Positions 15,709 to 45,221 of a stretch of DNA of 64,000 nt are shown here, one piece after another. Under the pieces are notes generated by a model. It had not been told where the DNA came from, searched no databases, and saw nothing but the letters and a program-made list of their open reading frames with translations. Position 1 is the first letter of the stretch, and every line of letters begins with the position of its first letter. Source of the DNA: Bacteroidota bacterium (GTDB lineage: Bacteria; Bacteroidota; Bacteroidia; UBA8524); assembly GCA_016124735.1 (NCBI GenBank), contig WGMZ01000031.1:52147-116146 (forward strand), given 5' to 3'. The translations under genes were made by a program, and so were the position numbers.

Positions 15709-17055
15709 TCAGGCCGAAGCCGTTTGGTTTTGGGCTTTCTGAACTACCCCAATTCCGTAGTAAATGAACCCTTTATCTTTTAATTCGCTTGAATCATATA
15801 TGTTTCTTCCATCGAAAATGACCTTGTCATTCATAATTTCGGTCATTTGCTCAAAGTTCGGAAAACGGAATTCTGGCCATTCTGTGGCCAAAATTAAAGC
15901 GTCCACACCTTTGAGGGTATCATATTGTTCTGCACAGTATTCGATTTTGTTGCCAATCATATGTTTGGCTTCTTCCATTGCAACTGGGTCAAAGGCCTTT
16001 ACTTTAGCACCTGCACTAAGTAAATGCTCAATAATTACTAAAGATGGGGCTTCGCGCATATCGTCCGTTTTCGGCTTGAAGGAAAGTCCCCAGAATCCGA
16101 AGGTTTTTCCAGTGAGATCAGTACCAAAATGTGAAACCACTTTATTGTACATCACTTCTTTCTGTGCTTCATTCACTTCTTCAACAGCTGTAAGGACACG
16201 CATATTATACCCTTTCTCCGCTGCGGTTCTAATCAAAGCCTTCACATCTTTAGGAAAACAGGAGCCACCATATCCAATTCCCGGATAGATAAATTTTGTT
16301 CCAATCCGCGCGTCGGAGCCAATTCCTTTACGTACTAAATTTACGTCTGCACCAACAATTTCGCATAGATTGGCAATGTCATTCATGAAACTAATCTTTG
16401 TAGCGAGCATCGAATTTGCGGCATATTTTGTCATTTCCGCAGAAGGAATATCCATGAAAATTACCGGGTGCCCGTTCAGGGTAAATGGTTTATATAGTTT
16501 TGCCATTATTTCCTGAGCTTTTTGGGATGAAATCCCCACAACAATGCGATCTGGTTTCAGAAAATCTTCAATTGCCGCGCCTTCTTTCAGGAACTCAGGA
16601 TTTGAAGCAACGTCGTATTCAATATCCACATTGCGTTGTGCCAGAGCTTCTTTGATCGCACTGTTTACTTTTTCAGCCGTTCCTACCGGAACGGTCGATT
16701 TGGTAACCACAACACCATAATTATTCATATTTTCACCAATTTCACGTGCAACTGCCAACACGTACTTCAAATCAGCAGAGCCGTCCTCTCCAGGAGGAGT
16801 TCCCACAGCGATAAAAGCCACATCAGCACCCTTTATTGCATCTCCAAGATTCGTTGAAAACCGGAGACGTTTGGCCTCGTAATTCTTGATTACCATTTCC
16901 TCAAGACCTGGCTCATATATTGGCATGATACCATTTCTAAGTCCTTCTATCTTTTTCTGATCAATATCGACGCAGACTACATCTATTCCAACTTCAGCAA
17001 AACAAGTTCCTGTCACAAGTCCTACATAACCGGTTCCTACTACTACAATTTTCAT
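15709..17055 (-). CDS. ugd: UDP-glucose 6-dehydrogenase
   Basis: The N-terminus is MKIVVVGTGYVGLVTGTCFAEVG and the catalytic-Cys motif is GGSCFPKDVKAL. At 448 aa it fits the UDP-glucose/GDP-mannose dehydrogenase family. Confidence 0.9.
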   Translation of the reverse strand: MKIVVVGTGYVGLVTGTCFAEVGIDVVCVDIDQKKIEGLRNGIMPIYEPGLEEMVIKNYEAKRLRFSTNLGDAIKGADVAFIAVGTPPGEDGSADLKYVLAVAREIGENMNNYGVVVTKSTVPVGTAEKVNSAIKEALAQRNVDIEYDVASNPEFLKEGAAIEDFLKPDRIVVGISSQKAQEIMAKLYKPFTLNGHPVIFMDIPSAEMTKYAANSMLATKISFMNDIANLCEIVGADVNLVRKGIGSDARIGTKFIYPGIGYGGSCFPKDVKALIRTAAEKGYNMRVLTAVEEVNEAQKEVMYNKVVSHFGTDLTGKTFGFWGLSFKPKTDDMREAPSLVIIEHLLSAGAKVKAFDPVAMEEAKHMIGNKIEYCAEQYDTLKGVDALILATEWPEFRFPNFEQMTEIMNDKVIFDGRNIYDSSELKDKGFIYYGIGVVQKAQNQTASA

Positions 17056-20458: not shown

Positions 20459-21053
20459 TCGTATGGATTCTGGGAATTATAAAATCAATAATATTATTTG
20501 TACAGACTTCTATATTCTGTAAATGGGTTGATACACGAAGTTCAGGATTTTCAGGAATTTCAAATGGCGAGTCGATTCCGGTAAAATTGCTAATCAAACC
20601 TTTCCTTGCCTTTTGGTATAAACCCTTTACATCGCGGCTTTCGCAAACTTCAACAGGACAATCTACATGGATTTCCACGAATGCATAACCAAGTATTTCA
20701 CGCGCCTGAAGGCGATCGCCAGCAAAAGGTGAAATGAAAGCGGTTAATACGACCAGTCCCGCGTCATTCATCAATTTAGCCACTTCTGAAATACGGCGGA
20801 TATTTTCAATTCTTCCTTTTGAGCTAAAATCAAGATCTTTATTCAGTCCGGTTCTTATATTGTCTCCATCGAGCAAATACGTTCGTATTCCTTTATCGGC
20901 CAGTGCTTGTTCCACAAGGTTAGCCAGAGTAGATTTCCCTGATCCTGAAAGCCCCGTAAACCAAAGAGTTTGCGACTTATGTCCGTTCAAACGCTCTCGA
21001 AAAACCCGATCGATCTTATGCTGATGAGGTATAATATGAAGTTTTTCAGTCAT
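20451..21053 (-). CDS. cysC: Adenylyl-sulfate (APS) kinase
   Basis: The Walker A motif LSGSGKSTLA is present and the 200-aa length and APS kinase pattern (LDGDNIR) fit. Confidence 0.9.
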   Translation of the reverse strand: MTEKLHIIPHQHKIDRVFRERLNGHKSQTLWFTGLSGSGKSTLANLVEQALADKGIRTYLLDGDNIRTGLNKDLDFSSKGRIENIRRISEVAKLMNDAGLVVLTAFISPFAGDRLQAREILGYAFVEIHVDCPVEVCESRDVKGLYQKARKGLISNFTGIDSPFEIPENPELRVSTHLQNIEVCTNNIIDFIIPRIHTNE

Positions 21054-22813: not shown

Positions 22814-23600
22814 TTCCGGCTTTCACAATAAACCAGGGATTTAACAGGTTTTCCTTGTTATAAGTCAATTCAATACCCGTTTCCGGGTTAAAGACGCGGC
22901 ATCCACTTGCCTTTGCGATTGCATGGCCGGCGGCAGTATCCCATTCCATGGTGGGAGCGAAACGGGGATAAATCTGAGCCGTGCCTTCCGCCACCATACA
23001 TATTTTCAATGAGGATCCGATGGATATCCATTCTATCTCCCCATGTTTTATTCTTAATTCTTGAATAAAAGACTCTGTTTCCCCCGAAAGATGGGACCTG
23101 CTACCAACAACAGTGTAAGGTTCACCTAGTGGTTGAGCAGATATTTTCACTTTCGAGGCATCAATTTCTTCCCATCCCGATTCTGGGTGAACTTTTTCGG
23201 CTTTATAACTCATTCCCGCATCCCCACCCCAATAAAGTTTCTTTAGTACCGGAGCATATACGACACCCCATACGGGTGCGCCGTTTTCTATCAATGCGAT
23301 GTTAACCGTAAACTCTCCATTTCTTTTGATGAATTCCTTGGTACCATCCAGGGGGTCCACCATCCAAAATCTTTTCCATTCACTTCTGTTCTCGTAGCAA
23401 TCCCTGCTCGATTCTTCACTTAGGACAGGAATACCGGTATCAGACAGATATTTAATAATTACCTGGTGTGCCTGCTCATCTGCCTCGGTCAATGGGCTTT
23501 TATCCTCCTTAAGCTCCACTTTGAATTCGTTTTCGTACACATTTAAAATTTTCCTGCCGGCTGCTAAGGCTGCTTCTAATGCTTGACGAAATTCACTCAT
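22800..23600 (-). CDS. cysQ: 3'(2'),5'-bisphosphate nucleotidase (PAP phosphatase)
   Basis: The inositol-monophosphatase-family metal-binding motif WMVDPLDGTKEF is present and the length is 266 aa. It lies adjacent to the PAPS genes. Confidence 0.8.
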   Translation of the reverse strand: MSEFRQALEAALAAGRKILNVYENEFKVELKEDKSPLTEADEQAHQVIIKYLSDTGIPVLSEESSRDCYENRSEWKRFWMVDPLDGTKEFIKRNGEFTVNIALIENGAPVWGVVYAPVLKKLYWGGDAGMSYKAEKVHPESGWEEIDASKVKISAQPLGEPYTVVGSRSHLSGETESFIQELRIKHGEIEWISIGSSLKICMVAEGTAQIYPRFAPTMEWDTAAGHAIAKASGCRVFNPETGIELTYNKENLLNPWFIVKAGNDDR

Positions 23601-29138: not shown

Positions 29139-30190
29139 GCCGACAAAAATGTTTTGATTTCATCCAAATTCCAGGTCATCATGCCGCTTGACAAGCCTTT
29201 TAATGCCCTTCCATGTGCAATGAGTTGAGTGGCATTCCCCTTGGTTTCAATGAACCTGATTTCTGCATAACGGAAGTATTTCTGGTATTTCGTCGGGAAA
29301 AAATCCCTTTTGAATTTTGCAATCAATTTCCAGTCTGTTCCATTCATGCTTGCATATACGCATGCGTGATCCTCATCATTCACAGGGCTAGGTTCCGTTA
29401 CCGTCGAAACAAAGTCTATTCCCCCCAAGCGAATAGCATGAAATGCGCTGCTGTTGATTTCGCACAAGGGATTTAATGATTTATTCGTTGGGTCGAAATG
29501 TTGAATCCAGTTTCTTTCTGAAGGAGAGTCCATTGGAACTATTATTCCGCCCGGCCCCGGGATCACCTCGACTGCACGATACTGCTGACTTCCTGTCCCT
29601 TCTTTGATCAGGGTAGCGAAATGGTCTCCTGTAAAATAGAGTCCCGATTCATCATCAGAATCTCCGGTTAATACCCAAAATCCATTTCGATACTCATCGT
29701 ATATGCAGCCGTGTACATGCCTGATTTCAGCAGCTTTGAATTTCCAAACCTCTCTCCAATTCACCCCATCGTTTGTGCCAAATACACGAACTTCTCCCCG
29801 ATCTGCGTTGGAAAAATATTCTCCAAAACAGGCAAATCCATCGGGTGAAATGCCCAAGTTCAACGGGCGTGAACCCTTGAAAGAGGAGAAAGTCCATTCT
29901 TCGGAAAAACCGGAATTGGAATAAATCACTTTTTTGTTTTCTACCCTCAGAAATCCATCAAGAAACGGGTAAATGCTATGTACTCCAAGACGAAGCACTC
30001 TCCGAAAAATTGCCCAATTCCCAAGGAGCTTCTCTTTCCAGGATTTGGCCCATTTGATTCCATTTTCCCTCCTACCGTTTTCATGGATCCAAACCAATCG
30101 GGTTGCCTGTGAAACTAAAATCGCTTTCCGCTCTGCATCGTAATAAAGCGGTTCATTGTTAACGTGGAAAGAAACCTTCGGTGTTTGCAT
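29135..30190 (-). CDS. Hypothetical protein (351 aa) of unknown function within the polysaccharide operon
   Basis: It shares a co-directional 4-bp overlap with the upstream gene. There is no signal peptide. It is beta-rich with Trp/Gly-rich segments and no family was recognised. Confidence 0.5.
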   Translation of the reverse strand: MQTPKVSFHVNNEPLYYDAERKAILVSQATRLVWIHENGRRENGIKWAKSWKEKLLGNWAIFRRVLRLGVHSIYPFLDGFLRVENKKVIYSNSGFSEEWTFSSFKGSRPLNLGISPDGFACFGEYFSNADRGEVRVFGTNDGVNWREVWKFKAAEIRHVHGCIYDEYRNGFWVLTGDSDDESGLYFTGDHFATLIKEGTGSQQYRAVEVIPGPGGIIVPMDSPSERNWIQHFDPTNKSLNPLCEINSSAFHAIRLGGIDFVSTVTEPSPVNDEDHACVYASMNGTDWKLIAKFKRDFFPTKYQKYFRYAEIRFIETKGNATQLIAHGRALKGLSSGMMTWNLDEIKTFLSA

Positions 30191-31128
30191 TATTTTTTAA
30201 GTTTCAATCTCCATGGATAGACCAGCATAAACGCCCAGGAAAGCATCTGGTGCATAGTCAAAGCGAGATGCTTATAGAAGGGCAATTTTACCGGATGGCG
30301 CTCGTAACCATTTTTAAAAATGAAACCATTCACTTTTTGAATCATGGCTATCTGGTAATCGCTAAACTCCTTTTCCCATTTGCGGGTATTCGATGTTAAT
30401 AAAGGACCAAAGGTTTCCTTTTTCCAGGAAACCTCATGTGCTGAAACCAGCTCCTTCGCACTTTCTGAAAAGGCCAGCATAGCCGGGTCATAATCTACTC
30501 CAACATGAACGCATATTTGCTTTAACGTTTCCTCTGCATTGCCAATCAAGGTTTCATAATTCAATTCCAGATAGGCTTCACCAAAGTATTTTTTTCCCAA
30601 ACGACGGCCTCTTGGCATTTGCGCCCGATAGATATAGGCATGAAGAAAAAAGGGCCAGGATTTCGACCAGTCTGCCTTGGTGCGACTCAGAACCACATCT
30701 CTTGGATCGCGCATCAGGTGGATGACTCTGGCATCCGGAAAAAAGTGCTTCAGTTCGCTGACAAAGTCCATATTTCGCGGGTCCTTATCGCCCAAATGAT
30801 GCTTCTGTTTTTCATCCAGGTAAGCCTTTGCCAATGCATTGAACCAGCTCATTTCAGATTCAAGTTCATCATCCGGCAAGTTGTCACTTATTTGGACTTC
30901 GCTAATTTTCGCCCTCTTAAAATCATCGTCTTCTCTTAAAAGAGATAGAATTTCCTCCCTCGTTAACCCATTAAAGGCCTGTTTAATGATATATTTTCTA
31001 AAAAAGTGCGTTTCCGGAAGAAAAGCAATATCCGGATGTGCATTCAGCATGCTTTGCAAAAGACTCGTCCCTGATCTTCCTACTCCAAAAATGAAAATTG
31101 GCTTATTTATTTTCTGCATACCAGGCAC
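30190..31128 (-). CDS. Sulfotransferase-family protein (PAPS-dependent)
   Basis: The 5'-PSB loop is FIFGVGRSGTSLL and the 3'-PB motif is LMRDPRDVVLSR. The length is 312 aa. Confidence 0.8.
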   Translation of the reverse strand: MPGMQKINKPIFIFGVGRSGTSLLQSMLNAHPDIAFLPETHFFRKYIIKQAFNGLTREEILSLLREDDDFKRAKISEVQISDNLPDDELESEMSWFNALAKAYLDEKQKHHLGDKDPRNMDFVSELKHFFPDARVIHLMRDPRDVVLSRTKADWSKSWPFFLHAYIYRAQMPRGRRLGKKYFGEAYLELNYETLIGNAEETLKQICVHVGVDYDPAMLAFSESAKELVSAHEVSWKKETFGPLLTSNTRKWEKEFSDYQIAMIQKVNGFIFKNGYERHPVKLPFYKHLALTMHQMLSWAFMLVYPWRLKLKK

Positions 31129-32944
31129 TTAAAAAGAGTAAACGGTAAATTTTAAATGTATTATTCGCCTTATTAGCAAAGTGATCGTTAATGATGTCCT
31201 GAAGTTTTTCGCGATTCAGTCGCTCAGTTAACCCCTTGTTATAAAAGTATTTCATGATTCGCTCCGGGCCAAGATTACCGATTTTTTTATCCAATGGTGG
31301 ATGAAACCCGGCTTTTCTGCGATCAACTAATTCCTTTGGGATTCTGGAAACAAGTACATCATACAAAGGAATTTTTCTTCTCTTCAGAGTAATGAGTCGG
31401 CTATCCGGTTCTGCCAGGGTATTCTCCAGAAGCTCAGGAGTGGCTAATGGAACCCTCAGTTCAATGCTTGCCTGCATACTGGATTTATCTGCCACCATGA
31501 AATTATGACTTAGAAAGCCCTGAACATCCACAAGCATCGCTTTTTTCACGGAGCTGAAATGCCGGTAAGGAGCATGAATAGCCTTTACATCATTTTGATA
31601 TCTCTTCAAGTCTTCTCCATTTGAAGTCAGGGCTTCAATTTCTGCATTGGAAAATGGAGTCAGCAATGCCTGATACGACTTAGAGAAAGAATTCTCTCTA
31701 AAAAAATTACTAAAACGTTCCAGCTTTTTAGAGAAGAACTTAGATCGTTTCATCAGTGGTTTTGCGAGAGGCCACACAAATCTGCCCAATTTGGTAACGA
31801 GTAAGAGCTGGTAACGCGGATAACCGGCAAAAATTTCATCTGCTCCCATTCCACTCAGCATGACCGTACACCCTCTTTTTCTTGCTTCAATGGAGATATG
31901 CTTCGATACAGAGAAGGTAAAATCTGCAATCGGCTCTTCGACCAAACGGGCCACTTCTTCCACTGAATTTAAAAATGCTTCCGGACTATCTTCTTCTACT
32001 GCCGGAGGTAACTCAATCAGATCGACCTTCAGCTCTTTTGCGATTTTTCTTCCATAATCCAGGTCGCTGGTAAATCCGGATTCCTTCACTTCCTCCTGAT
32101 TTTCGCTCAGTATCATCGTTGTGGTTTCCGTCTCCATGGAGGATAATATCAGGCTCGAGTCCACACCACCGCTGAAAAACAACCCAACAGGCACATCACT
32201 CAGCAAGTGATTTGAAATGCTCTTGTCAAGAACCTCATCCCAGGAAGTTGTTCTTTTCACAGCTTGAGCAGTCCAATATTCGGTAATGGATGGGTTCGAA
32301 ATTTCATTTTTCAAATCAAATCCAATCCAGTTTCCAGGAGCAACTTTATGTGTATGATTAAAACCGGTACGCGGTTCATATAAAAATCCAGCCGACAAGA
32401 AATCTGTCCAGACCTTCGGATCAATTTCCGGTTTCTTGCCCAAAACCTTCCAAATTGCTTTGAGCTCGGAAGCCCAAATCAATTGACCATCCCAGTAATA
32501 ATAATACAGAGGTTTAATTCCTAATTTATCCCGGCATAACCAAAGCTTCTGTTCAACTGTATCGTAAATTACAAAAGCGAACATGCCCTGGAAATCTTTG
32601 AATCCCTCGGTGCCGAATTCAATAAAGTATTTGAGCAGAACTTCTGTATCAGAACTTGTTCTGAAGTTGTGACCCTTTGCGGACAATATTTCCTTCAGCT
32701 GGAGAAAATTGTAAATCTCGCCGTTGAAAGTCAGGATATAGCGTTCATCTTCGGAGAAGAAGGGTTGATTGGATCGGGGATCCAAATCCAAAATGCTCAG
32801 ACGAACATGTCCTAATACAACATGGTGGTCGGCTGCCGTAAGCTCATGGTAATTCTGAAAATCCGGCCCCCGATGAAGGATGCTTTGAATTCCTGCCTCA
32901 ATATTCAGGCTATTATTAGAGATATATCCTACTACTCCGCACAT
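31103..32944 (-). CDS. Asparagine synthetase B-like glutamine amidotransferase (WbpS-like candidate uronate amidotransferase)
   Basis: The N-terminus MCGVVGY carries the Ntn nucleophile Cys2. A PP-loop SGGVDSS is present and the length is 613 aa. Confidence 0.85.
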   Translation of the reverse strand: MCGVVGYISNNSLNIEAGIQSILHRGPDFQNYHELTAADHHVVLGHVRLSILDLDPRSNQPFFSEDERYILTFNGEIYNFLQLKEILSAKGHNFRTSSDTEVLLKYFIEFGTEGFKDFQGMFAFVIYDTVEQKLWLCRDKLGIKPLYYYYWDGQLIWASELKAIWKVLGKKPEIDPKVWTDFLSAGFLYEPRTGFNHTHKVAPGNWIGFDLKNEISNPSITEYWTAQAVKRTTSWDEVLDKSISNHLLSDVPVGLFFSGGVDSSLILSSMETETTTMILSENQEEVKESGFTSDLDYGRKIAKELKVDLIELPPAVEEDSPEAFLNSVEEVARLVEEPIADFTFSVSKHISIEARKRGCTVMLSGMGADEIFAGYPRYQLLLVTKLGRFVWPLAKPLMKRSKFFSKKLERFSNFFRENSFSKSYQALLTPFSNAEIEALTSNGEDLKRYQNDVKAIHAPYRHFSSVKKAMLVDVQGFLSHNFMVADKSSMQASIELRVPLATPELLENTLAEPDSRLITLKRRKIPLYDVLVSRIPKELVDRRKAGFHPPLDKKIGNLGPERIMKYFYNKGLTERLNREKLQDIINDHFANKANNTFKIYRLLFLSAWYAENK

Positions 32945-34035
32945 TAGTTATTGCCTACTATTTCAATAAATTTTCGATTCCAATCGGTCGAATTAAACTC
33001 TTTCGATCTTTCGTATGATTGCTCACCCATTTCTTTCAACATGGCTTGATTGTTCACCAATTTCCGCATTACATCCGCCAGACCCTTATTATTTTCTATA
33101 GGCACCAAAAAGCCATTCCGACCCTCTTCAACCAATTCGTCGAGAAAGCGCCACCTTGTGGTCACAATTGGTAAGCCCGCTTCCATTGCTTCAATCAAAG
33201 CACCCGGATATCCTTCACCTTTCCAAAAAGATGGATACACAAAGGCATCGGCTTGCAGTAATTGTTTTCCAATTTCGGCATGTGGAAGTTCTCCAAGATA
33301 CTGGATGGTTGGTGTCTGCTCCAGCTGCCTGAGAATAGTATCATCGGTGCATTTTCCTATCACCTTTACAATAAAATCCGCCTCTTGCTTCGACAGAATC
33401 ATGCAAGCTTCGACCAAAACCTGTATCCCCTTTTCTTTTTTTACATGACCGACATAGACAAAGGTGGTTTTATCGGATGGCAATTTTTCTTCCTTTCGCA
33501 CTAATTTGTTTGCTGGCCGAGACGTTGGAAACCATTCAATATTCTCAACAGATCCTATGTTCTCTTTCCAAAAAGTGATTAAGCCCTTTGTTTGTAGCAG
33601 AATTCTATCAGAGGACCCTAGCCGTTTATAGTACCACTTATGCAGAGGTTTCGCCTCACAATAAAGGTCCAAGTCGCTGCCAAATAAGCGAATTTGAAAT
33701 TTTCTCTTAAAAATCCGTGCCATTGCAAAAAACACTATTCCCCATGGCCCCACCCTTTGTGGGTTTGCATGGAATGAAATAATCTGATAGAAAGGAATCG
33801 ATAGTAGTATTTGAAAGAAAAGTTTAATCTGCAAAAGCATATTGGCAAATCTGCCCGGCAACACCCTCAAGCTAATCAGACTAAAGTCCAGGTTACTTTT
33901 TTCTATGTCTTTGAGCAGAAGATCAAAAGACACCCGCGTTCCTCCCAGAGGAGGTGGCAATGGACCTATTAAAAGGATACGCTTTTTTAGCTCAGCCATT
34001 TTTCTTTCCAGGTTTGGAAAATATACAAATGCCAA
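32944..34035 (-). CDS. Glycosyltransferase family 4
   Basis: The C-terminal half of the GT-B fold carries FVYPSFWKGEGYPGALIEAMEAGLPIV (EX7E). Confidence 0.75.
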   Translation of the reverse strand: MAFVYFPNLERKMAELKKRILLIGPLPPPLGGTRVSFDLLLKDIEKSNLDFSLISLRVLPGRFANMLLQIKLFFQILLSIPFYQIISFHANPQRVGPWGIVFFAMARIFKRKFQIRLFGSDLDLYCEAKPLHKWYYKRLGSSDRILLQTKGLITFWKENIGSVENIEWFPTSRPANKLVRKEEKLPSDKTTFVYVGHVKKEKGIQVLVEACMILSKQEADFIVKVIGKCTDDTILRQLEQTPTIQYLGELPHAEIGKQLLQADAFVYPSFWKGEGYPGALIEAMEAGLPIVTTRWRFLDELVEEGRNGFLVPIENNKGLADVMRKLVNNQAMLKEMGEQSYERSKEFNSTDWNRKFIEIVGNN

Positions 34036-35888
34036 AGTTTTCGTTCACTGAGATTTTCACCCGCAAGAAAGCGATCACGGTAATGGATAATCTCGGGAAC
34101 ATTAAAATAGGCAGAATCCAATTTCTCCTCATTTATCACATCCATAAGCGTGGCCTTCAATGGCCCTCTCAACCATTCTGCGAGAGGAACAACAAATCCT
34201 TGCTTTGGCTTATCAATCTGTTTCTTATCGATCAAATCCCAGACAATTCTTTTGAGCAGATATTTTCCAGTTTGTTCATTTATCTTGAGATGATTACTTA
34301 GAGCAAAGGATTCCTCAATTATCCGGTAATCGAGTAGCGGCTCCCGTCCTTCGATGGAGAACCACATGGTTGAACGATCTACCTTGGTCATAATTTGATC
34401 CGGCAAATGTGTTCGGACATCCGTGAAGAGCATATCGGCCAGTGGATTTCCTGAACGAAGGACATTTTTAAATCGTCCAGGCTCGTCGCCTTCGATATGC
34501 ACCCATTTATTAATTTCTTCGTCCGAAATATATTTCGAGATTCCCCGCAGAATATCTACAATGTCTTTTTGTTTCAGAAGACTTTTAATTTTCCTGATTC
34601 TACCCAGCGGATTTCGTTTTCCCACCAATTTTTCCGCAACTGAATCAGGCATTAGCAGCGCCACTTCGCAACCCAGGATGTAAATTAAACGAAGCGGGGA
34701 ATTACTCATTTTATGAATCTTGAGCGCCCATTTGTGTTTATCGTACCCACCAAAAATTTCATCACCTCCATCAGCAGAAAGGACTACCTTCACTTTTTCA
34801 CTTGCCAGTTCACTAACCATCATGGTTGGTATTGCACTTGGATCACCAAATGGTTCATCAAACAGAAATGGAATATCCTGCAAGTATCTCAAGGCATCCT
34901 CTATGGCACAAACACGACTTGAATGCGTCGTTCCGAAATGGGCAGCGATTTTTTTTGCATCATCTGACTCATCAATTTTTTTATCCTGAAACCCTATGGT
35001 AAATGTTTTAAGGTCTTCCCTCTTTTCTGAGAGTTTTCCCACCAATAAGGTGCTATCATATCCACCACTTAAAAATACTCCAACAGGCACATCCGCAATC
35101 ATCCTGTAGTTGAATGCTGAATCAAATAATTGATTAAAAGTCTTTACTCCTTTTGATTCATCATGTATCGCATGTTTTTTAAGTTCTGACAGCGCATTTT
35201 CTTTGAAATGCCAGTATTCAGTGTCATTCGTTTCGAAACCGTTTAAGTTCAATTCGAGGTAATGCCCGGGAGAAATTTTATGAATTCCTTTATATATACA
35301 GAGATGTCCCGGAACATACCCGAATTGCATGAAATCTTTAATGGCCCGAGGATTCAATACCGGCTTGAATTCCGGGTGACCAAAAAAAGTTTTTAATTCT
35401 GAGCCAAAATAGAAATTCCCCTCATTCCATCCATAATACAACGGCTTAACCCCCACCCTGTCGCGAACAAAGAACATTTTACCTTTCACCTTATCTAACA
35501 AGGCAAATGCAAACATTCCATTCAGATGATGGACAAAATCAATCCCATAAGATCCATACAAGGCCAACAATACTTCCGTATCAGAATTTGATTGAAACGG
35601 GTATTTCGCTTCTTTCAGGAATTCATCTTTAAGTTCCTGATAATTGTAAATCTCTCCATTGAAAACAATTACCACCGATTTATCGTGGTTATACATAGGT
35701 TGGTTGGCCACTTCAGACAAGTCGATTATCGAAAGGCGTTTATGAACCAATCCTATGTGATGATTTCCGACAGTCTCAATTTGAATCCCCGTGCTATCCG
35801 GACCGCGGTAGTCAATGGCTTTTCCCATCGCTTCCATGGTAGATTCTGTGACAATTGACTTACTAAGTAATCCTGAAAAGCCGCACAT
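33987..35888 (-). CDS. Asparagine synthetase B-like glutamine amidotransferase (second copy)
   Basis: The N-terminus MCGFSGL carries Cys2. A PP-loop SGGYDST is present and the length is 633 aa. The gene overlaps the downstream GT4 by 49 bp. Confidence 0.85.
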   Translation of the reverse strand: MCGFSGLLSKSIVTESTMEAMGKAIDYRGPDSTGIQIETVGNHHIGLVHKRLSIIDLSEVANQPMYNHDKSVVIVFNGEIYNYQELKDEFLKEAKYPFQSNSDTEVLLALYGSYGIDFVHHLNGMFAFALLDKVKGKMFFVRDRVGVKPLYYGWNEGNFYFGSELKTFFGHPEFKPVLNPRAIKDFMQFGYVPGHLCIYKGIHKISPGHYLELNLNGFETNDTEYWHFKENALSELKKHAIHDESKGVKTFNQLFDSAFNYRMIADVPVGVFLSGGYDSTLLVGKLSEKREDLKTFTIGFQDKKIDESDDAKKIAAHFGTTHSSRVCAIEDALRYLQDIPFLFDEPFGDPSAIPTMMVSELASEKVKVVLSADGGDEIFGGYDKHKWALKIHKMSNSPLRLIYILGCEVALLMPDSVAEKLVGKRNPLGRIRKIKSLLKQKDIVDILRGISKYISDEEINKWVHIEGDEPGRFKNVLRSGNPLADMLFTDVRTHLPDQIMTKVDRSTMWFSIEGREPLLDYRIIEESFALSNHLKINEQTGKYLLKRIVWDLIDKKQIDKPKQGFVVPLAEWLRGPLKATLMDVINEEKLDSAYFNVPEIIHYRDRFLAGENLSERKLWHLYIFQTWKEKWLS

Positions 35889-37115: not shown

Positions 37116-38297
37116 TCATTTTGGGTCGATGTCGACACTCTTGTGATTAAGCCTGTAATTTCCGTATAGTAAGATCGGCAACATGATCGTTGTGAAATTA
37201 AAACTCAATCCAGACGCAATAATCAATACCAGACTAAGATTAAAAATACCCGATATATATTTACGAAGCACAAAAATTGAAAGAATCAATCCAATGATTC
37301 CCCCTCTGTACAAAGTATCAACCCAAAAGGTATCTCCCAAAAATATACCGTCAGGTTGTTGAAAACCATATCCAATCCATGGATTCGATTCAATACTGCG
37401 AATCGTTTCGTAATTCAACAAATCATGATTGGAAGCATCATACCTTGAAGAATATCCTTTTGAAATCAAATCAGCAAATCCACTGTACCCCGCATTTTCC
37501 AAAATTGAACTGAAAATTGGACCTATAAAAATAGCTGCAACCAAACCCACCCAAGGTAAAATAAGAAACGCCCGAGTTCCCTTTCCAACCAGTCTGTAAT
37601 AACTGTAAAGGAGCAATAAAATGAGTCCTATATAATACGCTTTGGAAAGTGTAAAAATTCCTAAAACAGCAGCGGCACCAAACCATCGCCATTTCTTCAA
37701 GCTGGCAAAGAAAAATGCCGTATAAAGGGAAAAGGCTGACAAATAAAGTGGAGTAAAGAAAACTCCGGTTTTTCGAGTGATCGTGCCATACCAATCCAGA
37801 GAATCTGATAAGTTAACACTCCTCGCATCTGAGAAATAATATTCTTTCAATAGCTCCACCGATTCCTTTGGATAGAATTCCTGATACAATACGGCCAAGC
37901 AATTCAGTACTACCATTATCTTAGAAAATCTTTCAAGGACAGGTAAGATAATATCTGATTGGTTTTCGTAGTAAAATAAAAAAACAAGAAAGGCTACATG
38001 TCCCAGTATTGGGATGTATGGAATTTTAGCAAAACCCGTTAAAGAGGAAAACAGGTACAATACAAACAAGCATATATATAGAAATTGTCCGGTTTGAAGC
38101 CGTTTTCGTTCTAAGATTTGCCATAATAAAATGAAAGGGAAAATGACATAGTAATTTGAAATAGCCAGATCTGATATCTTATACGGAGGTGCACCCAGAA
38201 TAATGCAAAGAATTAATGCAAGGCTAGAAATCCGATTAAAACGATAAAGGATTATACTGTAAATGGAGAGAACAAAAACAAAAATGTTAACCAGCAC
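37116..38297 (-). CDS. O-antigen polymerase/ligase-like polytopic membrane protein (Wzy-type candidate)
   Basis: The 393-aa protein has about 10 TM helices and a larger periplasmic loop near the C-terminal third. It sits in a Wzx/Wzy-dependent locus context. Confidence 0.55.
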   Translation of the reverse strand: MLVNIFVFVLSIYSIILYRFNRISSLALILCIILGAPPYKISDLAISNYYVIFPFILLWQILERKRLQTGQFLYICLFVLYLFSSLTGFAKIPYIPILGHVAFLVFLFYYENQSDIILPVLERFSKIMVVLNCLAVLYQEFYPKESVELLKEYYFSDARSVNLSDSLDWYGTITRKTGVFFTPLYLSAFSLYTAFFFASLKKWRWFGAAAVLGIFTLSKAYYIGLILLLLYSYYRLVGKGTRAFLILPWVGLVAAIFIGPIFSSILENAGYSGFADLISKGYSSRYDASNHDLLNYETIRSIESNPWIGYGFQQPDGIFLGDTFWVDTLYRGGIIGLILSIFVLRKYISGIFNLSLVLIIASGLSFNFTTIMLPILLYGNYRLNHKSVDIDPK

Positions 38298-38385: not shown

Positions 38386-39429
38386 CTATCCGGAAAAATC
38401 ACCAAAGTAAAATTCCGCGATTTTGGGATATAATCGAAATGTTTGAAGAATGTATTGATAGTCGTATGAGTTTTTATTCAACTCCAATGACTTTTTGTAC
38501 TCACCATAGTGAGTCAGGTATTTATCCTTACTGACAACCGGGTTTAATTGGTAGTTAGGACTCACTTCCAGTATGAGTGGTTTGGTCGATAAATCATCGT
38601 TTTGCCAGGCAATATCGAAAGCGCCAGTAACCATTTTCAATTTTCTAAACTCCTGAAGGATAAATGCTCGCCAGTTTTCAGGGAAAGAAACAAAATCAAC
38701 CTTGGACCCATGACCAGTTGAGGTCGGCTTCCATTCATCTGCCAGGTTAATACGCCAATAATGATGTACAATTTCGTTCCCAGTTAGAATAACTCGTAAG
38801 TCTCTTCGCATATTCAGTAATTCCTGAATTAGAATCGCATCATTCCTTTTCAGGTAATCATCATTTAATAAGGATAGAAGCTCCTCCTTGTTGTTGACTT
38901 TATGGACTCCTTTGGCACTGGCAGAATGCACTTCTTTTAATAGGCATGGATATTCAAGAGCTTCCAGATCAATCTCCTCAATGGTATGGAAGCTTTGTGT
39001 TTGAGGCGTGCTGATATTCAAGCGGCGGAATTCATTGGACATATGCGTCTTATTCTCCCAAAACAATGCTTCGTTTAATTCAGGGATTACTTTATTTCCC
39101 TGCTCTTTAAGCTGCTCGATGATAAAGCAAAGATTTTTCGAATAGTTGGCAAACTTCTGTCTATTCAAATAGCCGCGATCATAACTCATTATAATCGTAC
39201 AATTCTTCAGGCGCCCAATATCTTCTCCTTTAAAAACCGTATATGGAATGTCCATTTCAACCAAGGCTTTCTCCCAAGCAAAATCATTCACCGCCGTATC
39301 AGAAAACCAATACCTCCATCCCCGATTCGGCTTCCAGATAACAACATCCGCATTCGCAAACCTCTTCCGGGAAGAGAGGGTCAATAAAGCCCACAAGCGA
39401 AATAATTTTTTAATTAATTTCTTCATCAC
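38386..39429 (-). CDS. ATP-grasp-fold ligase (candidate amide-bond-forming enzyme)
   Basis: The central region YPCLLKEVHSASAKGVHKV ... ILIQELL ... DLRVILTGNEIVHHYW follows the ATP-grasp pattern (Lys, acidic and Arg residues). No signal peptide is present. Confidence 0.55.
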   Translation of the reverse strand: MMKKLIKKLFRLWALLTLSSRKRFANADVVIWKPNRGWRYWFSDTAVNDFAWEKALVEMDIPYTVFKGEDIGRLKNCTIIMSYDRGYLNRQKFANYSKNLCFIIEQLKEQGNKVIPELNEALFWENKTHMSNEFRRLNISTPQTQSFHTIEEIDLEALEYPCLLKEVHSASAKGVHKVNNKEELLSLLNDDYLKRNDAILIQELLNMRRDLRVILTGNEIVHHYWRINLADEWKPTSTGHGSKVDFVSFPENWRAFILQEFRKLKMVTGAFDIAWQNDDLSTKPLILEVSPNYQLNPVVSKDKYLTHYGEYKKSLELNKNSYDYQYILQTFRLYPKIAEFYFGDFSG

Positions 39430-39943
39430 GCAGCTTTTTAATTTCTGACAGGCCGTGGTATTGAAGATTCAACTCTTGAACGGCTCTGATAATATCTGAG
39501 TACAATTTTTCCTGTCCTCGCTCCTGGTTATAAGACAAATCATCATAATAAATGACCGAAGCATATTTACTTACAAGCAGCCTCAGGTACTTTAATTTAT
39601 GTCTTGCAGAAGGCACAATTATGCATTCCGAAGAAATATTATTTTCTTTTAACCAATCTCGAGTTACCCTAAAAAGCTCCATCTTTCGTGCTGTAAGGAT
39701 GAGAATCTTATAGCCTTTACTTTCGTACTCTTTTAATTTATTTATTACTCCGCGAATGGGCTTTGCCGATGCATACGCCTTTCTGGAATATCCACCCTTT
39801 ACCAAACATGGCCAGGTATCTGCCAGTGTATTATCCAAATCAAACACGACCAAATTCGCAGCATTTATAGTAAGTCTGAGCTTTTTCTTGTTGTAGTTGA
39901 GCCAATCCAGGAGTATAAATAATACTTCTCTTATTCTTGTCAT
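39410..39943 (-). CDS. HAD-superfamily phosphatase
   Basis: Motif I VVFDLDNTLAD (DxDxT) is present. The length is 177 aa and the gene overlaps the ATP-grasp gene start. Confidence 0.65.
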   Translation of the reverse strand: MTRIREVLFILLDWLNYNKKKLRLTINAANLVVFDLDNTLADTWPCLVKGGYSRKAYASAKPIRGVINKLKEYESKGYKILILTARKMELFRVTRDWLKENNISSECIIVPSARHKLKYLRLLVSKYASVIYYDDLSYNQERGQEKLYSDIIRAVQELNLQYHGLSEIKKLRDEEIN

Positions 39944-39944
39944 C

Positions 39945-41108
39945 TTACAGACCCAGTTCCACTGGGAGTTTCATCAGGGATTTAATTGCATTCACAATGA
40001 CTTCATTCTCATCTTTCGAACGCGCTGCAACTCTTATGAATTGACCATTCAAACCAATTTTATCCGAACAATTTCTGACATAGACGCCATGGTCTGACAA
40101 AAGTCTTGCCTGCGCATGTCCAGAATTCAGTCCATTCATGAGCTCAATTAATACGAAATTGGCTTTCGAAGGGTACACTTTTATTCCTTCAATTGCCTGT
40201 AGTTCAGCAATGAAAAACAAAGACTCCGTGATGTATTTCTTTCGTACAATTTCGTAGGCATCATTAAAGTCCTTCCTCACATAGAGTCGAAAAAAGTATT
40301 CTGAAAGACCGTTTAAGTTCCACAAGTAACCATTCGAAAATAATTCCTTCACCCATTCACTCTTCATGACCGCATATCCGCAACGCAAACCAGCAACACC
40401 AAAATCTTTCGACATACTTTTAACTAAAATCACATTGTCATTTTCCAGAACAATAGGCAATACCGATTTAAGCTCCATATCGCTACTCTCATATGCAAAA
40501 TGAATAAAACTCTCATCGACAATAATGTTATCCAGATAGCTTAACTCCGCTATAATTCTAGATATATCTTCGAATTTTAAATAGCCACCATCCGGATTAT
40601 TCGGATTGATTAATACAATAGAACTTGCTCCGCTATTTTTGACAAAATCGATATATTCATCTACATCCAATTTAAAATTCTTTTCCTTCTTTAATTCATA
40701 AAAAACAACCTCAATATTGGGTGTGATGTATTCATAATAGGAGGAAAAAGTTGGTATATTAACAATTAGTTTGCCCTTAACGTAACGATGCAAAACTGCT
40801 TGAATTGCCTCTATCGCACCGTTCCCAACAAAAATACGCGCTGGATCTATTTTCAAATTTTTACCTAATAACTCGGCAATTTCAGAACTTTGTGAGGGAT
40901 AAAATTCTAATACACGGTTGATTTTTCCTGTGTCAATTAGTTCTCGCTTAAAGTATTCGAGAAATAGTTCCGTTGCGTAAGGATTGCTTAAGAAGCAGGC
41001 ATCTACCTTAATTTTTAACTCAGGTATCTCCTCCAACATTGTAAATATGCTTGGAGAGTGTGTTCCAGAACGACTTTTTAGTTCTAATATTTTATCAAAC
41101 ATTTCCAT
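39945..41108 (-). CDS. Class I/II PLP-dependent aminotransferase (HisC/CobD-like)
   Basis: NPNNPDG and the PLP-Lys motif SMSKDFGVAGLRCGY are present. The length is 387 aa. Confidence 0.8.
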   Translation of the reverse strand: MEMFDKILELKSRSGTHSPSIFTMLEEIPELKIKVDACFLSNPYATELFLEYFKRELIDTGKINRVLEFYPSQSSEIAELLGKNLKIDPARIFVGNGAIEAIQAVLHRYVKGKLIVNIPTFSSYYEYITPNIEVVFYELKKEKNFKLDVDEYIDFVKNSGASSIVLINPNNPDGGYLKFEDISRIIAELSYLDNIIVDESFIHFAYESSDMELKSVLPIVLENDNVILVKSMSKDFGVAGLRCGYAVMKSEWVKELFSNGYLWNLNGLSEYFFRLYVRKDFNDAYEIVRKKYITESLFFIAELQAIEGIKVYPSKANFVLIELMNGLNSGHAQARLLSDHGVYVRNCSDKIGLNGQFIRVAARSKDENEVIVNAIKSLMKLPVELGL

Positions 41109-42345
41109 AATTACGGAGACTATTGGTATTTAAAAACAAATTCAATCCTTTCATCAGGGAGACAAATGCATAAACTATAATTAGGGTATAAAGCACGCCA
41201 ATTTCAGCATAGGCTTTCACCAAAGGGATTATGACTATAAAATTTAAGATCGCCGAATAGAGTAATATTCTGCTCATTTTTCTTTCCTTGTGCTCAATGA
41301 CAAAAAAATTCGAAAAAATGGGCCCAAATGGCAGCAACAAGATGACAAATGAAGTGACGTGCAGGAGGTTCACAATATTCTCATCCTTGTTTCCCTGCAA
41401 TAAAATAGCAATGGGTCCAGCCAAATAATAAATCACGAAAGCTCCTACGACAAATACCACGGAAAGACCCAAAGTAAATTGCCTTCTCATTTTGATATAT
41501 TTATCACGCTGGCTGATAAACCATTGCGCCATATTGGGAAATGTGGCTTGTACAAGTGGTTGAGCCAGCGAAGAACCAGCTTTGATCATCTTATCGGCAA
41601 CACCAAAAATACCTACTGCTCCGTCTCCCGCATAATACCCCAGAATCAGAACATTTGTTGACCCATAAGTGCTTACAAGAACCCTGGAAATAAATACATG
41701 CCATCCTAACTTCAATTCTTTCATAATGGCCCGGTAAGGTGGTATCTGAATACGAAAATTCTCCAGTTTAAGTGCTATTCCGAATCCAATTAGCCCGGAT
41801 ATTAACCAACCACTTGACAGTAAAAGAATGGTAGCCCCTATTTGTGTCGATTCGCGAATAAATAGAAAAATTAGACCTATAGAAATGAATTTGGAAATAA
41901 CATTGATAATGGTCAGAATTCGCATTTTTTTTATTCCCTGAAAATACCAAACAGGAAAGAAAGCGTTGCCAACAACCATAAGGAATCCATAAAAATAATT
42001 CAATCTATCCTGAGGAGTATCCAACCATAGTATTATGCCTATAAATGGAATAACTGTGGCAAATAATAAAACTATCTTAGATATCTGTATGCGAATAAAT
42101 GCGGTATTCCTCTCCTCCGAACTCGTGCATTGCCCTATTGTGCGTGTACCGGTCAGGTTAAAACCATAATCAACAATGATGTTAAAATAGGACATGATGG
42201 CCTGGATGAAAATGACCTGACCATATCCCTCCTTCCCAATTACCCGAAACAGAAAAGGGATTACAAGAAGCGGTGTAAGGTAATTCGCTGCTTGCATAAA
42301 ACCCAGTGCTACCGTATTTCCGATAATTTGTTTCCGCTCGGTCAA
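41095..42345 (-). CDS. wzx: Oligosaccharide-unit flippase Wzx (MOP superfamily)
   Basis: The protein is 416 aa with 12 TM helices and follows the polysaccharide-biosynthesis-protein pattern. Confidence 0.7.
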   Translation of the reverse strand: MTERKQIIGNTVALGFMQAANYLTPLLVIPFLFRVIGKEGYGQVIFIQAIMSYFNIIVDYGFNLTGTRTIGQCTSSEERNTAFIRIQISKIVLLFATVIPFIGIILWLDTPQDRLNYFYGFLMVVGNAFFPVWYFQGIKKMRILTIINVISKFISIGLIFLFIRESTQIGATILLLSSGWLISGLIGFGIALKLENFRIQIPPYRAIMKELKLGWHVFISRVLVSTYGSTNVLILGYYAGDGAVGIFGVADKMIKAGSSLAQPLVQATFPNMAQWFISQRDKYIKMRRQFTLGLSVVFVVGAFVIYYLAGPIAILLQGNKDENIVNLLHVTSFVILLLPFGPIFSNFFVIEHKERKMSRILLYSAILNFIVIIPLVKAYAEIGVLYTLIIVYAFVSLMKGLNLFLNTNSLRNYGNV

Positions 42346-43367
42346 GAGTTGATTTTATAAAATTTATTATACCAATCGATAAATGAAGCAATTCCTTCCT
42401 GCACAGAAGTGTTCGGTTCATAATTTGTAATCTTTTTGAGCTTGCCCACATCCGCCCAGGTTTGGTGTACATCACCTGGTTGCATTTCTCTGAAAATAAG
42501 TTGTGCCTTTTTCCCGATTGTTTCTTCCATCACACGGATAAATTGCATTAAATCTACAGGGGCTCCTCTGCCAATATTCAAAATACTATATGGTTCAGTA
42601 TAACCTTCTGCTAAAACCAATAAACGAATTCCGTTCACAATATCTTCTACAAATGTAAAATCACGTGCCATGTCTCCATTATTAAAAACCTGGATAGGCT
42701 TGTCTTCCGTAATAGCTTTCGCAAACAACATGGGAGCCATGTCGGGTCGGCCCCACGGTCCGTAAACGGTAAAAAAACGCAGTCCGATAGTCTGAATTCC
42801 ATACAGATGACTATACGTGTGGGCCATCAACTCATTTGCTTTCTTTGTGGCGGCATAAAGACTCACGGGATTAGATACTTCCTGTGATTCCGTGAAAGGG
42901 ACGGTACTAGAATCTCCATAAACACTTGAACTGGAGGCATAAATTAAGGTCGGTACTTTTCGATGACGACATCCTTCTAAAATATTCATGAATGCATCGA
43001 TATTCGCAGAAATGTACGCATGCGGGTTCTCCAACGAATATCTCACGCCCGGTTGAGCAGCCAAATGAACAACATGAGTGAATGTAAACTGACCAAACAA
43101 ATTCTCTACCGATTTGCGATCGGAAAGATCCATACGAATGAAAGTATAGAATTGATTTATTTTTGATTTGACTGGTTCATTCCACTTTAAATTTTCGGTT
43201 TCTATACCCGAATCTTCCAATCTGGCTAACTTCAGTTTGATGTCATAATAATTATTGATGGAGTCCACTCCAACAATGTGATATCCATCTTTCCACAGTG
43301 CCTTTACCAGCTGGTGTCCTATAAATCCAGCAGTTCCAGTTACAAGAATGGTTTTATTTCTATCCAA
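42342..43367 (-). CDS. UDP-GlcNAcA/UDP-GlcA 4-epimerase (TviC/WbpP/CapI-like SDR)
   Basis: The N-terminus is TILVTGTAGFIGHQL followed by DSINNYYDIKLKLARL, which is characteristic of the CapI/TviC subfamily. It overlaps the dehydrogenase partner downstream. Confidence 0.8.
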   Translation of the reverse strand: MDRNKTILVTGTAGFIGHQLVKALWKDGYHIVGVDSINNYYDIKLKLARLEDSGIETENLKWNEPVKSKINQFYTFIRMDLSDRKSVENLFGQFTFTHVVHLAAQPGVRYSLENPHAYISANIDAFMNILEGCRHRKVPTLIYASSSSVYGDSSTVPFTESQEVSNPVSLYAATKKANELMAHTYSHLYGIQTIGLRFFTVYGPWGRPDMAPMLFAKAITEDKPIQVFNNGDMARDFTFVEDIVNGIRLLVLAEGYTEPYSILNIGRGAPVDLMQFIRVMEETIGKKAQLIFREMQPGDVHQTWADVGKLKKITNYEPNTSVQEGIASFIDWYNKFYKINS

Positions 43368-43410
43368 AATATACTCTTTGCTGCTAATAAATAAATGAGT
43401 ATTTCACACC

Positions 43411-44703
43411 TTAAAGTCTCGAATCTACAAGAGATTTGTCTAACACGCCTTTGATATCAAAGACAACAGAATTAGTAGTGGTAAGCACTGAAAAATCTAA
43501 TTTCAAGAATTCATCGTGTGCAACGGCCAGAACCACGGCTTCATAACTCATTCCAGGGCTCTCTTTGGTAATTTCCAAACCGTACTCATGTTTGACTTCC
43601 TCCTCGTTTGCCCAGGGATCATAAATATCTACCATGCACCCGAAGCCCTTTAATTCGGAAACGATATCGACTACACGGGTATTTCGAATATCCGGACAAT
43701 TTTCCTTAAAGGTGAAGCCCATGACCAGCACATTGCTGCCCTTTATGGTATGACCTTTTTGAATCATCAATTTGACGACTTTGTTTGCCACGAACATGCC
43801 CATATTGTCATTCACTCTTCTTCCGGAAAGAATTACCTGGGGATGATATCCCAAGGTTTCTGCTTTGTGCGCCAGATAATAGGGATCCACGCCAATACAA
43901 TGTCCACCAACCAATCCTGGCTTGTATTTTAAAAAGTTCCATTTTGTGCCGGCGGCGGCCAAAACATCGTTGGTATCAATACCAATTCGATCGAAAATCA
44001 AAGCCAGTTCATTTACAAAGGAAATGTTGACGTCTCGTTGTGCATTTTCAATTGCCTTTGAAGCTTCAGCTACTTTAATGTTCGGTGCTTTATGTGTTCC
44101 TGCTGCAATAATTGATGCATACAATGCATCGACAAAATCTGCAACATCCGGTGTGGACCCAGAAGTTACCTTCATGATTTTAGTCAAAGTATTCACTTTA
44201 TCCCCCGGATTGATACGCTCAGGAGAATATCCGCAATAAAAGTCTTGATTAAAGACTAATCCTGAATTCGATTCCAGCACAGGAACGCAATCTTCTTCCG
44301 TGCAGCCAGGATAGGTTGTTGACTCATAAATAACGATATCGCCTTTTTTAAGAATTTGTCCAATACTGGCACTGGCAGAAATAAGTGGTCTGAGATCCGG
44401 AGATTTGCTGGAATCAACCGGAGTAGGTACGGTGACAATGTAAACATTGCATACTTCTATTTCATTCCGGTCAGATGTAATTTTTAATCCTGCATGAGGA
44501 TCACCATTTCCTAAAGCAATTTTTAGTTCGCTTTCATCCGCTTCCAGAGTTGAATCTTTGCCCGATGCCAATTCGCGGACTCTATGGCTGTTTATGTCAT
44601 ATCCAACTGTTTTAAATTTTTTGGAAAATTCAAGGGCTAATGGAAGGCCGACATAGCCTAATCCAATTACAGCGATTTTAGCTGATTTCAATTCTTGCAC
44701 CAT
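43411..44703 (-). CDS. UDP-N-acetyl-D-glucosamine (or mannosamine) 6-dehydrogenase (TviB/WbpA/WecC-like)
   Basis: The N-terminus is [18 protein letters not shown]. The catalytic Cys region [11 protein letters not shown] is present and the 430-aa length is typical of the TviB/WbpA class. Confidence 0.85.
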
Positions 44704-45221
44704 AACATTAAATTCGATTCTCTTAAAACGGTGTTTTTTTCTGCCTCAAATTCTTCTCGATTGAACAGAACATACCTTATTTTTCTTTTTATTTGAACTT
44801 CTACTTTTTCCAGCAACCTCATCAGATAGGCTTTATCGATATCTCCTACAAAGATTAAATCAATAATAGGACTATCCAGCCCCTTTCCTAATTCTCCAAC
44901 AAGATATACTTCTTCAAGCTGTCCTAATCGACTAACTACCCGATCTACAATTTGATCCAGGCCTGTATATTTGAGCAGGATATTATGAATGTCTGCAAAA
45001 AGCGGATGCTGCCTATTGGCTCCAAACAATTTGCGGTTTCCCTGATGAACGGACATCAAAAGTCCGGCTTTCTCAAATCTGTTTAGTTCAAGTCTTATTG
45101 CATTTGTGCTTTCACCAAATTCAGATTCAAGGCTCCTCAAATAGGCAGAGGTATCTGCATTAAGAAAAAATTTCAGCAATAGTTTCACCCTGGTTTTGGA
45201 TGAAATTAAAATATCAATCAC
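44688..45221 (-). CDS. Putative winged-helix transcriptional regulator
   Basis: The N-terminal wHTH-like segment is [11 protein letters not shown] ... [18 protein letters not shown]. The length is 177 aa. It lies between wzc and the sugar-biosynthesis genes. Confidence 0.4.

Follow-up and report, generated by a model that had tools for sequence, protein, structure and literature searches.

Gene content of the locus

The stretch of DNA analysed here, to which we refer as the window, comprises 64,000 nucleotides of contig WGMZ01000031.1 from the genome assembly of a Bacteroidota bacterium (GCA_016124735.1), and this report is concerned with three consecutive genes in it that are predicted to attach an amino alcohol to a surface polysaccharide. 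The trio lies inside a long minus-strand polysaccharide locus of the Wzx/Wzy/Wza/Wzc type that is rich in uronic-acid, amidation and sulfation genes. It consists of a pyridoxal phosphate (PLP) enzyme, a phosphatase of the haloacid dehalogenase (HAD) superfamily and an ATP-grasp ligase:

39945..41108, minus strand: fold-type I PLP-dependent enzyme, SMUL_1544 (SmCobD)-like clade, 387 aa; Aminotran_1_2 match at E 4.9e-39
39410..39943, minus strand: small capless HAD-superfamily phosphatase, 177 aa; weak HAD-IIIA, LNS2 and acid-phosphatase-B matches
38386..39429, minus strand: ATP-grasp ligase of the RimK/LysX class, family uncharacterised, 347 aa; matches to the ATP-grasp models RimK and Dala_Dala_lig_C

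An initial annotation, made from the sequence alone, had described these as three consecutive, overlapping genes for an aminotransferase, a HAD phosphatase and an ATP-grasp enzyme. The open reading frames (ORFs) are present on the minus strand, each of the motifs quoted for them (NPNNPDG, SMSKDFG and DLDNTLAD) was found, and the three superfamilies were confirmed by Pfam and NCBIfam profiles. The overlap applies to one junction of the trio and not to the other: the HAD and ATP-grasp genes share 17-20 nt, whereas the PLP and HAD genes abut, i.e. a TAA is followed by one base and an ATG. The start of the PLP gene, placed at 41102 in the database gene model, is itself overlapped by the upstream Wzx gene, and the ligase likely starts with the ATG at 39426. 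A protein identical to the ligase is on record from a Bacteroidetes metagenome-assembled genome (MAG).

Conservation of the trio across genomes

One genome per species was scanned with an alignment of the ATP-grasp protein, which yielded 74 ligase-bearing loci. Enough flanking DNA to judge was available for 59 of them, and their gene content was determined by tblastn and family hidden Markov models:

PLP, HAD and ligase genes, in this order in most cases: 46 of 59
PLP and ligase genes only: 7 of 59
HAD and ligase genes only: 6 of 59
Ligase gene alone: 0 of 59

With all three genes present in 46 of the 59 informative loci, the arrangement is not a product of chance. The PLP and ligase genes are adjacent in 53 loci, seven of which have nothing between the two and no HAD gene. 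Gene presence, assignment to a fold or family, intact catalytic motifs and conserved synteny are the features observed for the trio.

Most of the loci belong to Bacteroidota (Pedobacter, Chitinophaga, Cyclobacteriaceae, Flavobacteriaceae, Saprospiraceae), mostly from soil, freshwater and marine habitats, and a few come from MAGs labelled as Anaerolineae, Acidimicrobiales/Microthrixaceae, Rhizobium and Neisseria. The identity to the window proteins is 51-64% for the PLP enzyme in most loci (the divergent L052 has 37%), 36-51% for the ligase and 27-39% for the HAD protein. Every related locus that was inspected has a glycan-locus context, and Tenacibaculum singaporense has the same gene order as the window, i.e. 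dehydrogenases, epimerase, Wzx, PLP, HAD and ligase. Cultured carriers include Tenacibaculum singaporense (CP032548), Pedobacter yulinensis YL28-9, P. steynii DSM 19110, P. caeni DSM 16990 and P. nyackensis DSM 19625. A UDP-sugar dehydrogenase or a GalE/TviC-like epimerase is found within 10 kb in 25 of the 41 full-length loci; these 25 are mostly from Pedobacter, so that the loci are not independent.

The loci with two genes deserve a comment. Firstly, in those where PLP and ATP-grasp genes are adjacent and no HAD gene was found in the fetched flanks (L006, L008, L012, L015, L025, L028 and L066), the product may keep its phosphate as a phosphoethanolamine amide, or an unlinked phosphatase may act on it, so that dephosphorylation may be optional or done elsewhere. 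Secondly, the loci with a HAD and ATP-grasp pair and no class I/II PLP gene in the fetched flanks (L019, L026, L040, L071, L048 and L053) suggest that the phospho-amine is taken from central metabolism; a phospho-amino acid such as phosphoserine may also be ligated directly. Three of the latter loci (L019, L026 and L040) have a divergently transcribed ORF just upstream. An apparent fusion of the HAD and ATP-grasp proteins in L038 is spurious and stems from a stretch of masked N.

The PLP enzyme

The PLP enzyme remains far below the cut-offs of the two models to which it might be assigned, with 157.7 bits against 276.55 for HisC (TIGR01141) and 155.7 bits against 290.55 for CobD (TIGR01140). 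Judged by these scores, it is neither a HisC nor a classical CobD. The closest protein of known structure is PDB entry 6OUX, a 'threonine phosphate decarboxylase-like enzyme', with 371 bits and an E value of 5.5e-110, and the runners-up are HisC proteins with at most 97 bits and threonine phosphate decarboxylases with 70-90 bits. The alignment to 6OUX is ungapped and includes the N-terminus, with 45% identity over 372 residues as counted on the alignment, and the SMSKDFG motif of the PLP lysine is aligned to SLSKDFG. The molecule name of 6OUX is the exact annotation of SMUL_1544 from Sulfurospirillum multivorans, a gene that sits between cbiB and cobU. In work attributed to Keller et al. 2019 (FEBS Lett), SMUL_1544 is said to decarboxylate L-serine O-phosphate to ethanolamine O-phosphate. 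The product of this gene governs the biosynthesis of norcobamides, in which an ethanolamine linker is present.

We also searched the representatives of protein clusters that cover 1.84 billion proteins, and only 244 of them matched the PLP enzyme with an E value of 1e-30 or lower. The top match of the window protein, P0244, is also that of 6OUX, and an N-terminal G-x-HSPS motif is shared by the window protein and 6OUX, by 48 of 54 homologues from the surveyed loci and by the top representatives. Two metagenomic representatives are fusion proteins. The C-terminal domain of P0245 (51% identity to the PLP enzyme) resembles plant phosphoethanolamine N-methyltransferases in their first methyltransferase domain (E 1e-49), and P0251 (41% identity) carries a similar methyltransferase-domain fusion. 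A phosphoethanolamine methyltransferase as fusion partner would most simply mean that the PLP enzyme makes phosphoethanolamine, and this favours ethanolamine over serinol as the amino alcohol. We therefore predict, from the kinship to SMUL_1544 and from these fusions, that the window protein is an O-phospho-L-serine decarboxylase making phosphoethanolamine. The domain composition of P0245 and P0251 moreover hints that some bacteria may reach phosphocholine from phosphoserine.

In remoter relatives of the PLP enzyme the fusion partner is a nucleotidyltransferase, a GHMP kinase or a class-I glutamine amidotransferase. PDB entries 8FFT and 8FFU were considered as the structure of Cj1437, a Campylobacter jejuni protein discussed below, and were discarded; they are in fact GntC from guanitoxin biosynthesis.

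The ATP-grasp ligase

A search of 5.8 billion proteins returned 221 homologues of the ligase, chiefly from Bacteroidota (Tenacibaculum, Pedobacter, Ekhidna), and every one of them is unnamed or generically named. The window protein matches the RimK family PF08443, and it reaches 44.3 bits with the RimK-family model TIGR00768, the cut-off of which is 143.4. Its AlphaFold2 model (pLDDT, the predicted local confidence, of 92) is closest to ArgX/LysX and RimK. The ATP- and magnesium-binding residues K165, D272 and E288 are invariant. The E-x-N magnesium site reads E288-V-S290, and S290, which is aligned to N262 of Escherichia coli RimK, is invariant in 48 family members.

Enzymes of the RimK/LysX type couple small amines to carboxylates on macromolecules, and a glycan carboxylate and phosphoethanolamine would fit this pattern as substrates. 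By analogy we predict that the ligase is an amidoligase joining the two.

The HAD phosphatase

The catalytic motifs of the HAD protein (D35-x-D37-x-T39, K116 and D134-D135) are all invariant in the homologues from related loci, and a Thr or Ser (motif II) precedes the invariant R86. The spacing of the motifs is too short for a cap domain, and the structure model, which was built from an alignment of three sequences and has a pLDDT of 70 (moderate confidence), consists of the Rossmannoid core alone. The structures nearest to this model are the 3'-phosphatase domains of T4 polynucleotide kinase (PNK) and Pnkp1, followed by class C acid phosphatases and the LNS2 domain. PNK-type and LNS2 enzymes act on phosphates borne by large substrates. 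The protein has 34.2 bits with the EcbF/BcbF 'capsule biosynthesis phosphatase' model TIGR01689 (cut-off 162), and the PDB relative 1XPJ is matched at E 0.015 only. Again by analogy, the phosphatase is predicted to remove the phosphate from a phospho-amino-alcohol amide.

The surrounding polysaccharide locus

The genes around the trio that bear most directly on its function are the following:

41095..42345, minus strand: Wzx-type flippase, immediately upstream of the PLP gene and overlapping it; Polysacc_synt match at E 1.3e-36
42342-43367, minus strand: TviC/GalE-like 4-epimerase, adjoining the TviB-like gene; GalE and TviC models both below cut-off
43411-44703, minus strand: TviB-like UDP-N-acetylglucosamine (UDP-GlcNAc) 6-dehydrogenase; 560 bits with the TviB model NF011729, cut-off 592
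15709..17055, minus strand: second nucleotide-sugar 6-dehydrogenase, a TuaD-like UDP-glucose dehydrogenase, for the supply of UDP-glucuronic acid (UDP-GlcA); NF047673 556 bits, TIGR03026 479 bits
37116..38297, minus strand: multi-pass membrane protein directly downstream of the trio, with hydrophobic sequence

The initial annotation had placed the trio in an exopolysaccharide locus that makes several uronic acids, and this is borne out by the two dehydrogenases, the epimerase and two further uronic-acid-related genes, WecB and a GFO-type oxidoreductase. The TviB-like and TviC/GalE-like pair (42342..44703) is a probable supplier of UDP-N-acetylgalactosaminuronic acid (GalNAcA) and would be a candidate source of the carboxylate. 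The membrane protein at 37116..38297 had no match in Pfam and NCBIfam searches; it is probably a Wzy-type polymerase, and Wzy_C or similar membrane proteins adjoin the trio in other loci. The assembly and export genes comprise Wza, Wzc, Wzx, the Wzy-like membrane protein and an initiating transferase of the WbpL/WecA type, while several GT4 glycosyltransferases, a sulfotransferase, an SDR epimerase and a PglD-like acetyltransferase are among the tailoring genes. Of the genes recognised around the trio, none belongs to cobamide or histidine metabolism.

The locus has its own supply of 3'-phosphoadenosine 5'-phosphosulfate (sulfate permease, CysC, CysD, CysN and CysQ) in addition to the sulfotransferase (18266-23600 and 30190-31128). 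From these genes we conclude that the polysaccharide probably bears sulfate in addition to amide groups. A pair of AsnB-type glutamine amidotransferases, of a kind thought to give primary uronamides, is encoded at 31103-32944 and 33987-35888, and in 21 of the 41 full-length related loci similar genes lie no more than 10 kb from the trio. A heparinase II/III-like protein is encoded within the biosynthetic operon (27591-29138) and again in the Tenacibaculum singaporense locus (L075, 17805-19685). Three ORFs of the locus had no Pfam match (44688-45221, 29135-30190 and 13039-14583, with 177, 351 and 514 aa). Finally, the segment 60001-62000, which is part of a minus-strand ORF of 1108 aa (59654-62980), has a strong compositional skew (GC skew -0.27, AT skew -0.29).

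Proposed function and alternatives

We propose that the three genes act as a single module, which would couple an amino alcohol, in all likelihood ethanolamine, through an amide bond to a carboxyl-bearing sugar in the repeat unit of the polysaccharide, and we give this reading a probability of roughly 0.55. In the first step the PLP enzyme would decarboxylate O-phospho-L-serine, an intermediate of the serine pathway, to O-phosphoethanolamine. The RimK/LysX-class ligase would then activate the sugar carboxylate, probably C6 of GalNAcA, GlcA or another uronic acid, as an acyl phosphate that is captured by the amine of phosphoethanolamine to form the amide. In the third step the capless HAD phosphatase would strip the phosphate and leave an N-(2-hydroxyethyl)uronamide. 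Since the ligation requires ATP, it would take place in the cytoplasm, before flipping by Wzx. The substrates, the acceptor sugar and the sequence of the steps are all inferred; as to the sequence (ligation before dephosphorylation), we follow the precedent of C. jejuni.

Several points weigh against this proposal. The identity of 45% to SmCobD would leave room for transamination of dihydroxyacetone phosphate (DHAP) to serinol phosphate or for decarboxylation of threonine phosphate. The magnesium site of the ligase is unusual, with Ser at the canonical Asn position of E-x-N, the model of the phosphatase is of moderate confidence only, and the families of both proteins are without a characterised enzyme, which leaves context as the only guide to the nucleophile and to the carboxylate that accepts it. 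The two AsnB-type amidotransferases may already amidate the same uronic carboxylates, and 16 of the 41 full-length loci have no detected uronic-acid gene within 10 kb. Lastly, the three steps are not always coupled, as 7 loci are without the HAD gene and 6 without the PLP gene.

The alternative that survives best, even if we hold it to be unlikely, retains the module and changes the amine: a Cj1437-type transaminase would convert DHAP to (S)-serinol phosphate, or a CobD-type L-threonine-phosphate decarboxylase would make aminopropanol phosphate, and the glycan would carry a serinol or aminopropanol amide. It is consistent with the nearly equal scores of the HisC and CobD models (157.7 and 155.7 bits), with an identity of just 45% to the characterised decarboxylase and with the situation in C. 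jejuni, where a transaminase and a decarboxylase of the same fold both supply one ligase. It is opposed by the wide margin by which 6OUX is the closest structure (371 bits, against at most 97 for HisC and 70-90 for threonine phosphate decarboxylases), by the clade-specific N-terminal motif shared with 6OUX and by the same-clade fusions to a phosphoethanolamine N-methyltransferase-like domain; moreover, a threonine kinase gene was not recognised in the locus.

Ranking next, and improbable in our view, is a different acceptor: phosphoethanolamine would be ligated to a carboxylate other than C6 of a uronic acid (a pyruvate ketal, a lactyl ether, a nonulosonic acid or an amino-acid substituent), or the ligase would work on a nucleotide sugar and not on the lipid-linked oligosaccharide. 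The 16 loci without a detectable uronic-acid gene nearby could be understood in this manner, the acceptor pocket of the ligase is uncharacterised, and both AsnB-type enzymes may already consume the uronic carboxylates. On the other hand, the trio directly follows uronic-acid precursor genes and Wzx both in the window and in Tenacibaculum singaporense, and neither a pyruvyltransferase nor a nonulosonic-acid synthase was seen in the window locus.

It is also conceivable, if quite improbable, that the three genes do not form one pathway. The ATP-grasp enzyme would in that case have an amino acid as its nucleophile (Glu, Ser or Ala) and either the glycan or an amino sugar as the acceptor, and the PLP and HAD proteins would supply something different, for instance free ethanolamine or a phosphoethanolamine substituent via another transferase. 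The nearest structural relatives of the ligase do use amino acid nucleophiles, amino-acid amides of uronic acids such as GalNAcA6(D-Ala) occur in bacterial glycans, and the HAD and ligase genes occur without the PLP gene in 6 loci. Against this stands the fact that 53 of the 59 loci have the PLP and ligase genes side by side, among them the 7 that carry no HAD gene; a dedicated phosphoethanolamine transferase was not identified among the genes of the locus, and a phosphatase coupled to the ligase is sensible only if the ligated amine is phosphorylated.

That housekeeping genes (hisC or cobD, a generic phosphatase and rimK) came to lie in the locus by chance is hardly credible, and although homologues are publicly annotated as 'histidinol-phosphate transaminase' and 'RimK family alpha-L-glutamate ligase', we reject the hisC, cobD and rimK readings on model cut-offs and gene context, as the scores are far under the equivalog cut-offs (158 vs 277 for hisC, 156 vs 291 for cobD and 44 vs 143 for the rimK family), the trio is translationally coupled within a glycan operon, its three-gene synteny is kept across many genera and histidine or cobamide genes were not found nearby.

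Significance

Amide capping of uronic acids removes negative charge and alters the recognition of surface polysaccharides by phages, lectins, antibodies and degrading enzymes. To our knowledge, the C. jejuni pathway is the only worked-out route to amino-alcohol amides. If the ethanolamine-amide proposal is true, the trio would be a second solution to the same task, with a ligase and a phosphatase from other families. In the searchable literature we came upon no description of amino-alcohol amides from glycans of Bacteroidota. Literature searches found, outside C. jejuni, neither ethanolamine amides nor any RimK-type ligase to which a specific part in amidating glycans has been assigned; the sole lead was an unstudied 'RimK-like' gene listed in an O-antigen cluster of Aeromonas hydrophila.

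A broader proposal can be put forward tentatively, and we give it somewhat less than even odds: the trio would represent a widespread, uncharacterised module of Bacteroidota, with scattered copies in other MAGs, that installs ethanolamine amides on uronic acids by means of a RimK-type ligase and a capless HAD phosphatase and that arose independently of the TupA-type system of Campylobacter. Loci without the HAD gene may then keep the phosphate, those without the PLP gene may ligate phosphoserine, and the fusions of the PLP enzyme with methyltransferase domains would mark a route from phosphoserine to phosphocholine. The prediction for the trio can be checked in cultured strains, and it offers a testable function for three families that are now misnamed as 'histidinol-phosphate transaminase', 'hypothetical protein' and 'RimK family ligase'.

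Comparison with known systems

It is instructive to compare each of the three proteins with its best known relatives. SMUL_1544 (SmCobD) shares with the PLP enzyme a full-length, ungapped alignment of 45% identity, the G-x-HSPS motif and the PLP lysine, and its product in cobamide synthesis likewise becomes amide-linked to a carboxylate. The surroundings are different: SMUL_1544 belongs to a cobamide operon beside cbiB and cobU, where CbiB is the amide-forming partner, while the window gene belongs to a polysaccharide operon without cobamide genes and its partner would be the ATP-grasp protein.

RimK, LysX and ArgX have a clear kinship to the window ligase at the level of the fold. The identity is only 14-20%, well under the family cut-offs, and the canonical E-x-N is replaced by E-V-S in the window protein. 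The carboxylate in RimK, LysX and ArgX is a protein C-terminus and the nucleophile an amino acid, whereas a glycan and a phospho-amino alcohol are predicted here. The capless HAD proteins (T4 PNK, Pnkp1, class C acid phosphatases and LNS2) have the Rossmannoid core, the DxDxT, K and DD motifs and the lack of a cap in common with the window phosphatase; they differ from it in an identity below 25% and in the predicted substrate, which in the window would be a glycan-borne phosphoethanolamine amide.

As a complete system, the closest parallel is the glucuronamide decoration of the C. jejuni capsule, in which Cj1436 or Cj1437, the C-terminal domain of Cj1438 (Cj1438C) and Cj1435 act in serotype HS:2 and HS19.10, HS19.11C and HS19.09 in HS:19. 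It has been shown experimentally in both serotypes that the phospho-amine is ligated first and then dephosphorylated, and a transaminase and a decarboxylase of the same fold both feed one ligase. The initial annotation had regarded the trio as analogous to Cj1435-Cj1438. The predicted three-enzyme chemistry is indeed alike, and both systems reside in a surface-polysaccharide locus with UDP-sugar dehydrogenases. Homology, in turn, probably holds for one of the three enzymes, the PLP protein, the kinship of which we place indirectly via the SMUL_1544-type enzyme, and fails for the ligase and the phosphatase. Cj1438C (sequence from the supplement of PMC11800397) was assigned by its authors to the TupA-like type and matches PF14305 (TupA-like) at E 1.3e-37. 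When the window ligase was compared with it, BLASTP gave E 1.5 and hhalign a probability of 3.4% over 38 columns. Cj1435 matches PF12710 at E 1.7e-20, and the comparison of the window HAD protein with it gave a BLASTP E of 0.48 and an hhalign probability of 0.2%; neither window protein matched the family of its Campylobacter counterpart. Judged by these family assignments, the window ligase is in the same superfamily as the Campylobacter amidoligase and in another family.

There are further differences in architecture. The TupA-like domain of C. jejuni is fused to a GT2 glycosyltransferase, while the window ligase is a free-standing RimK/LysX-class protein of 347 aa, and the PF12710-type Cj1435 has its counterpart in a capless HAD protein of 177 aa. 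Two PLP genes are found there and one here. The Campylobacter capsule is assembled by the ABC-transporter pathway (Kps, poly-Kdo linker), as opposed to the Wzx/Wzy-dependent pathway encoded in the window. Because two of the three enzymes come from other families and the assembly pathway differs, the trio is not a member of the Campylobacter glucuronamide system, yet by analogy it would function like it.

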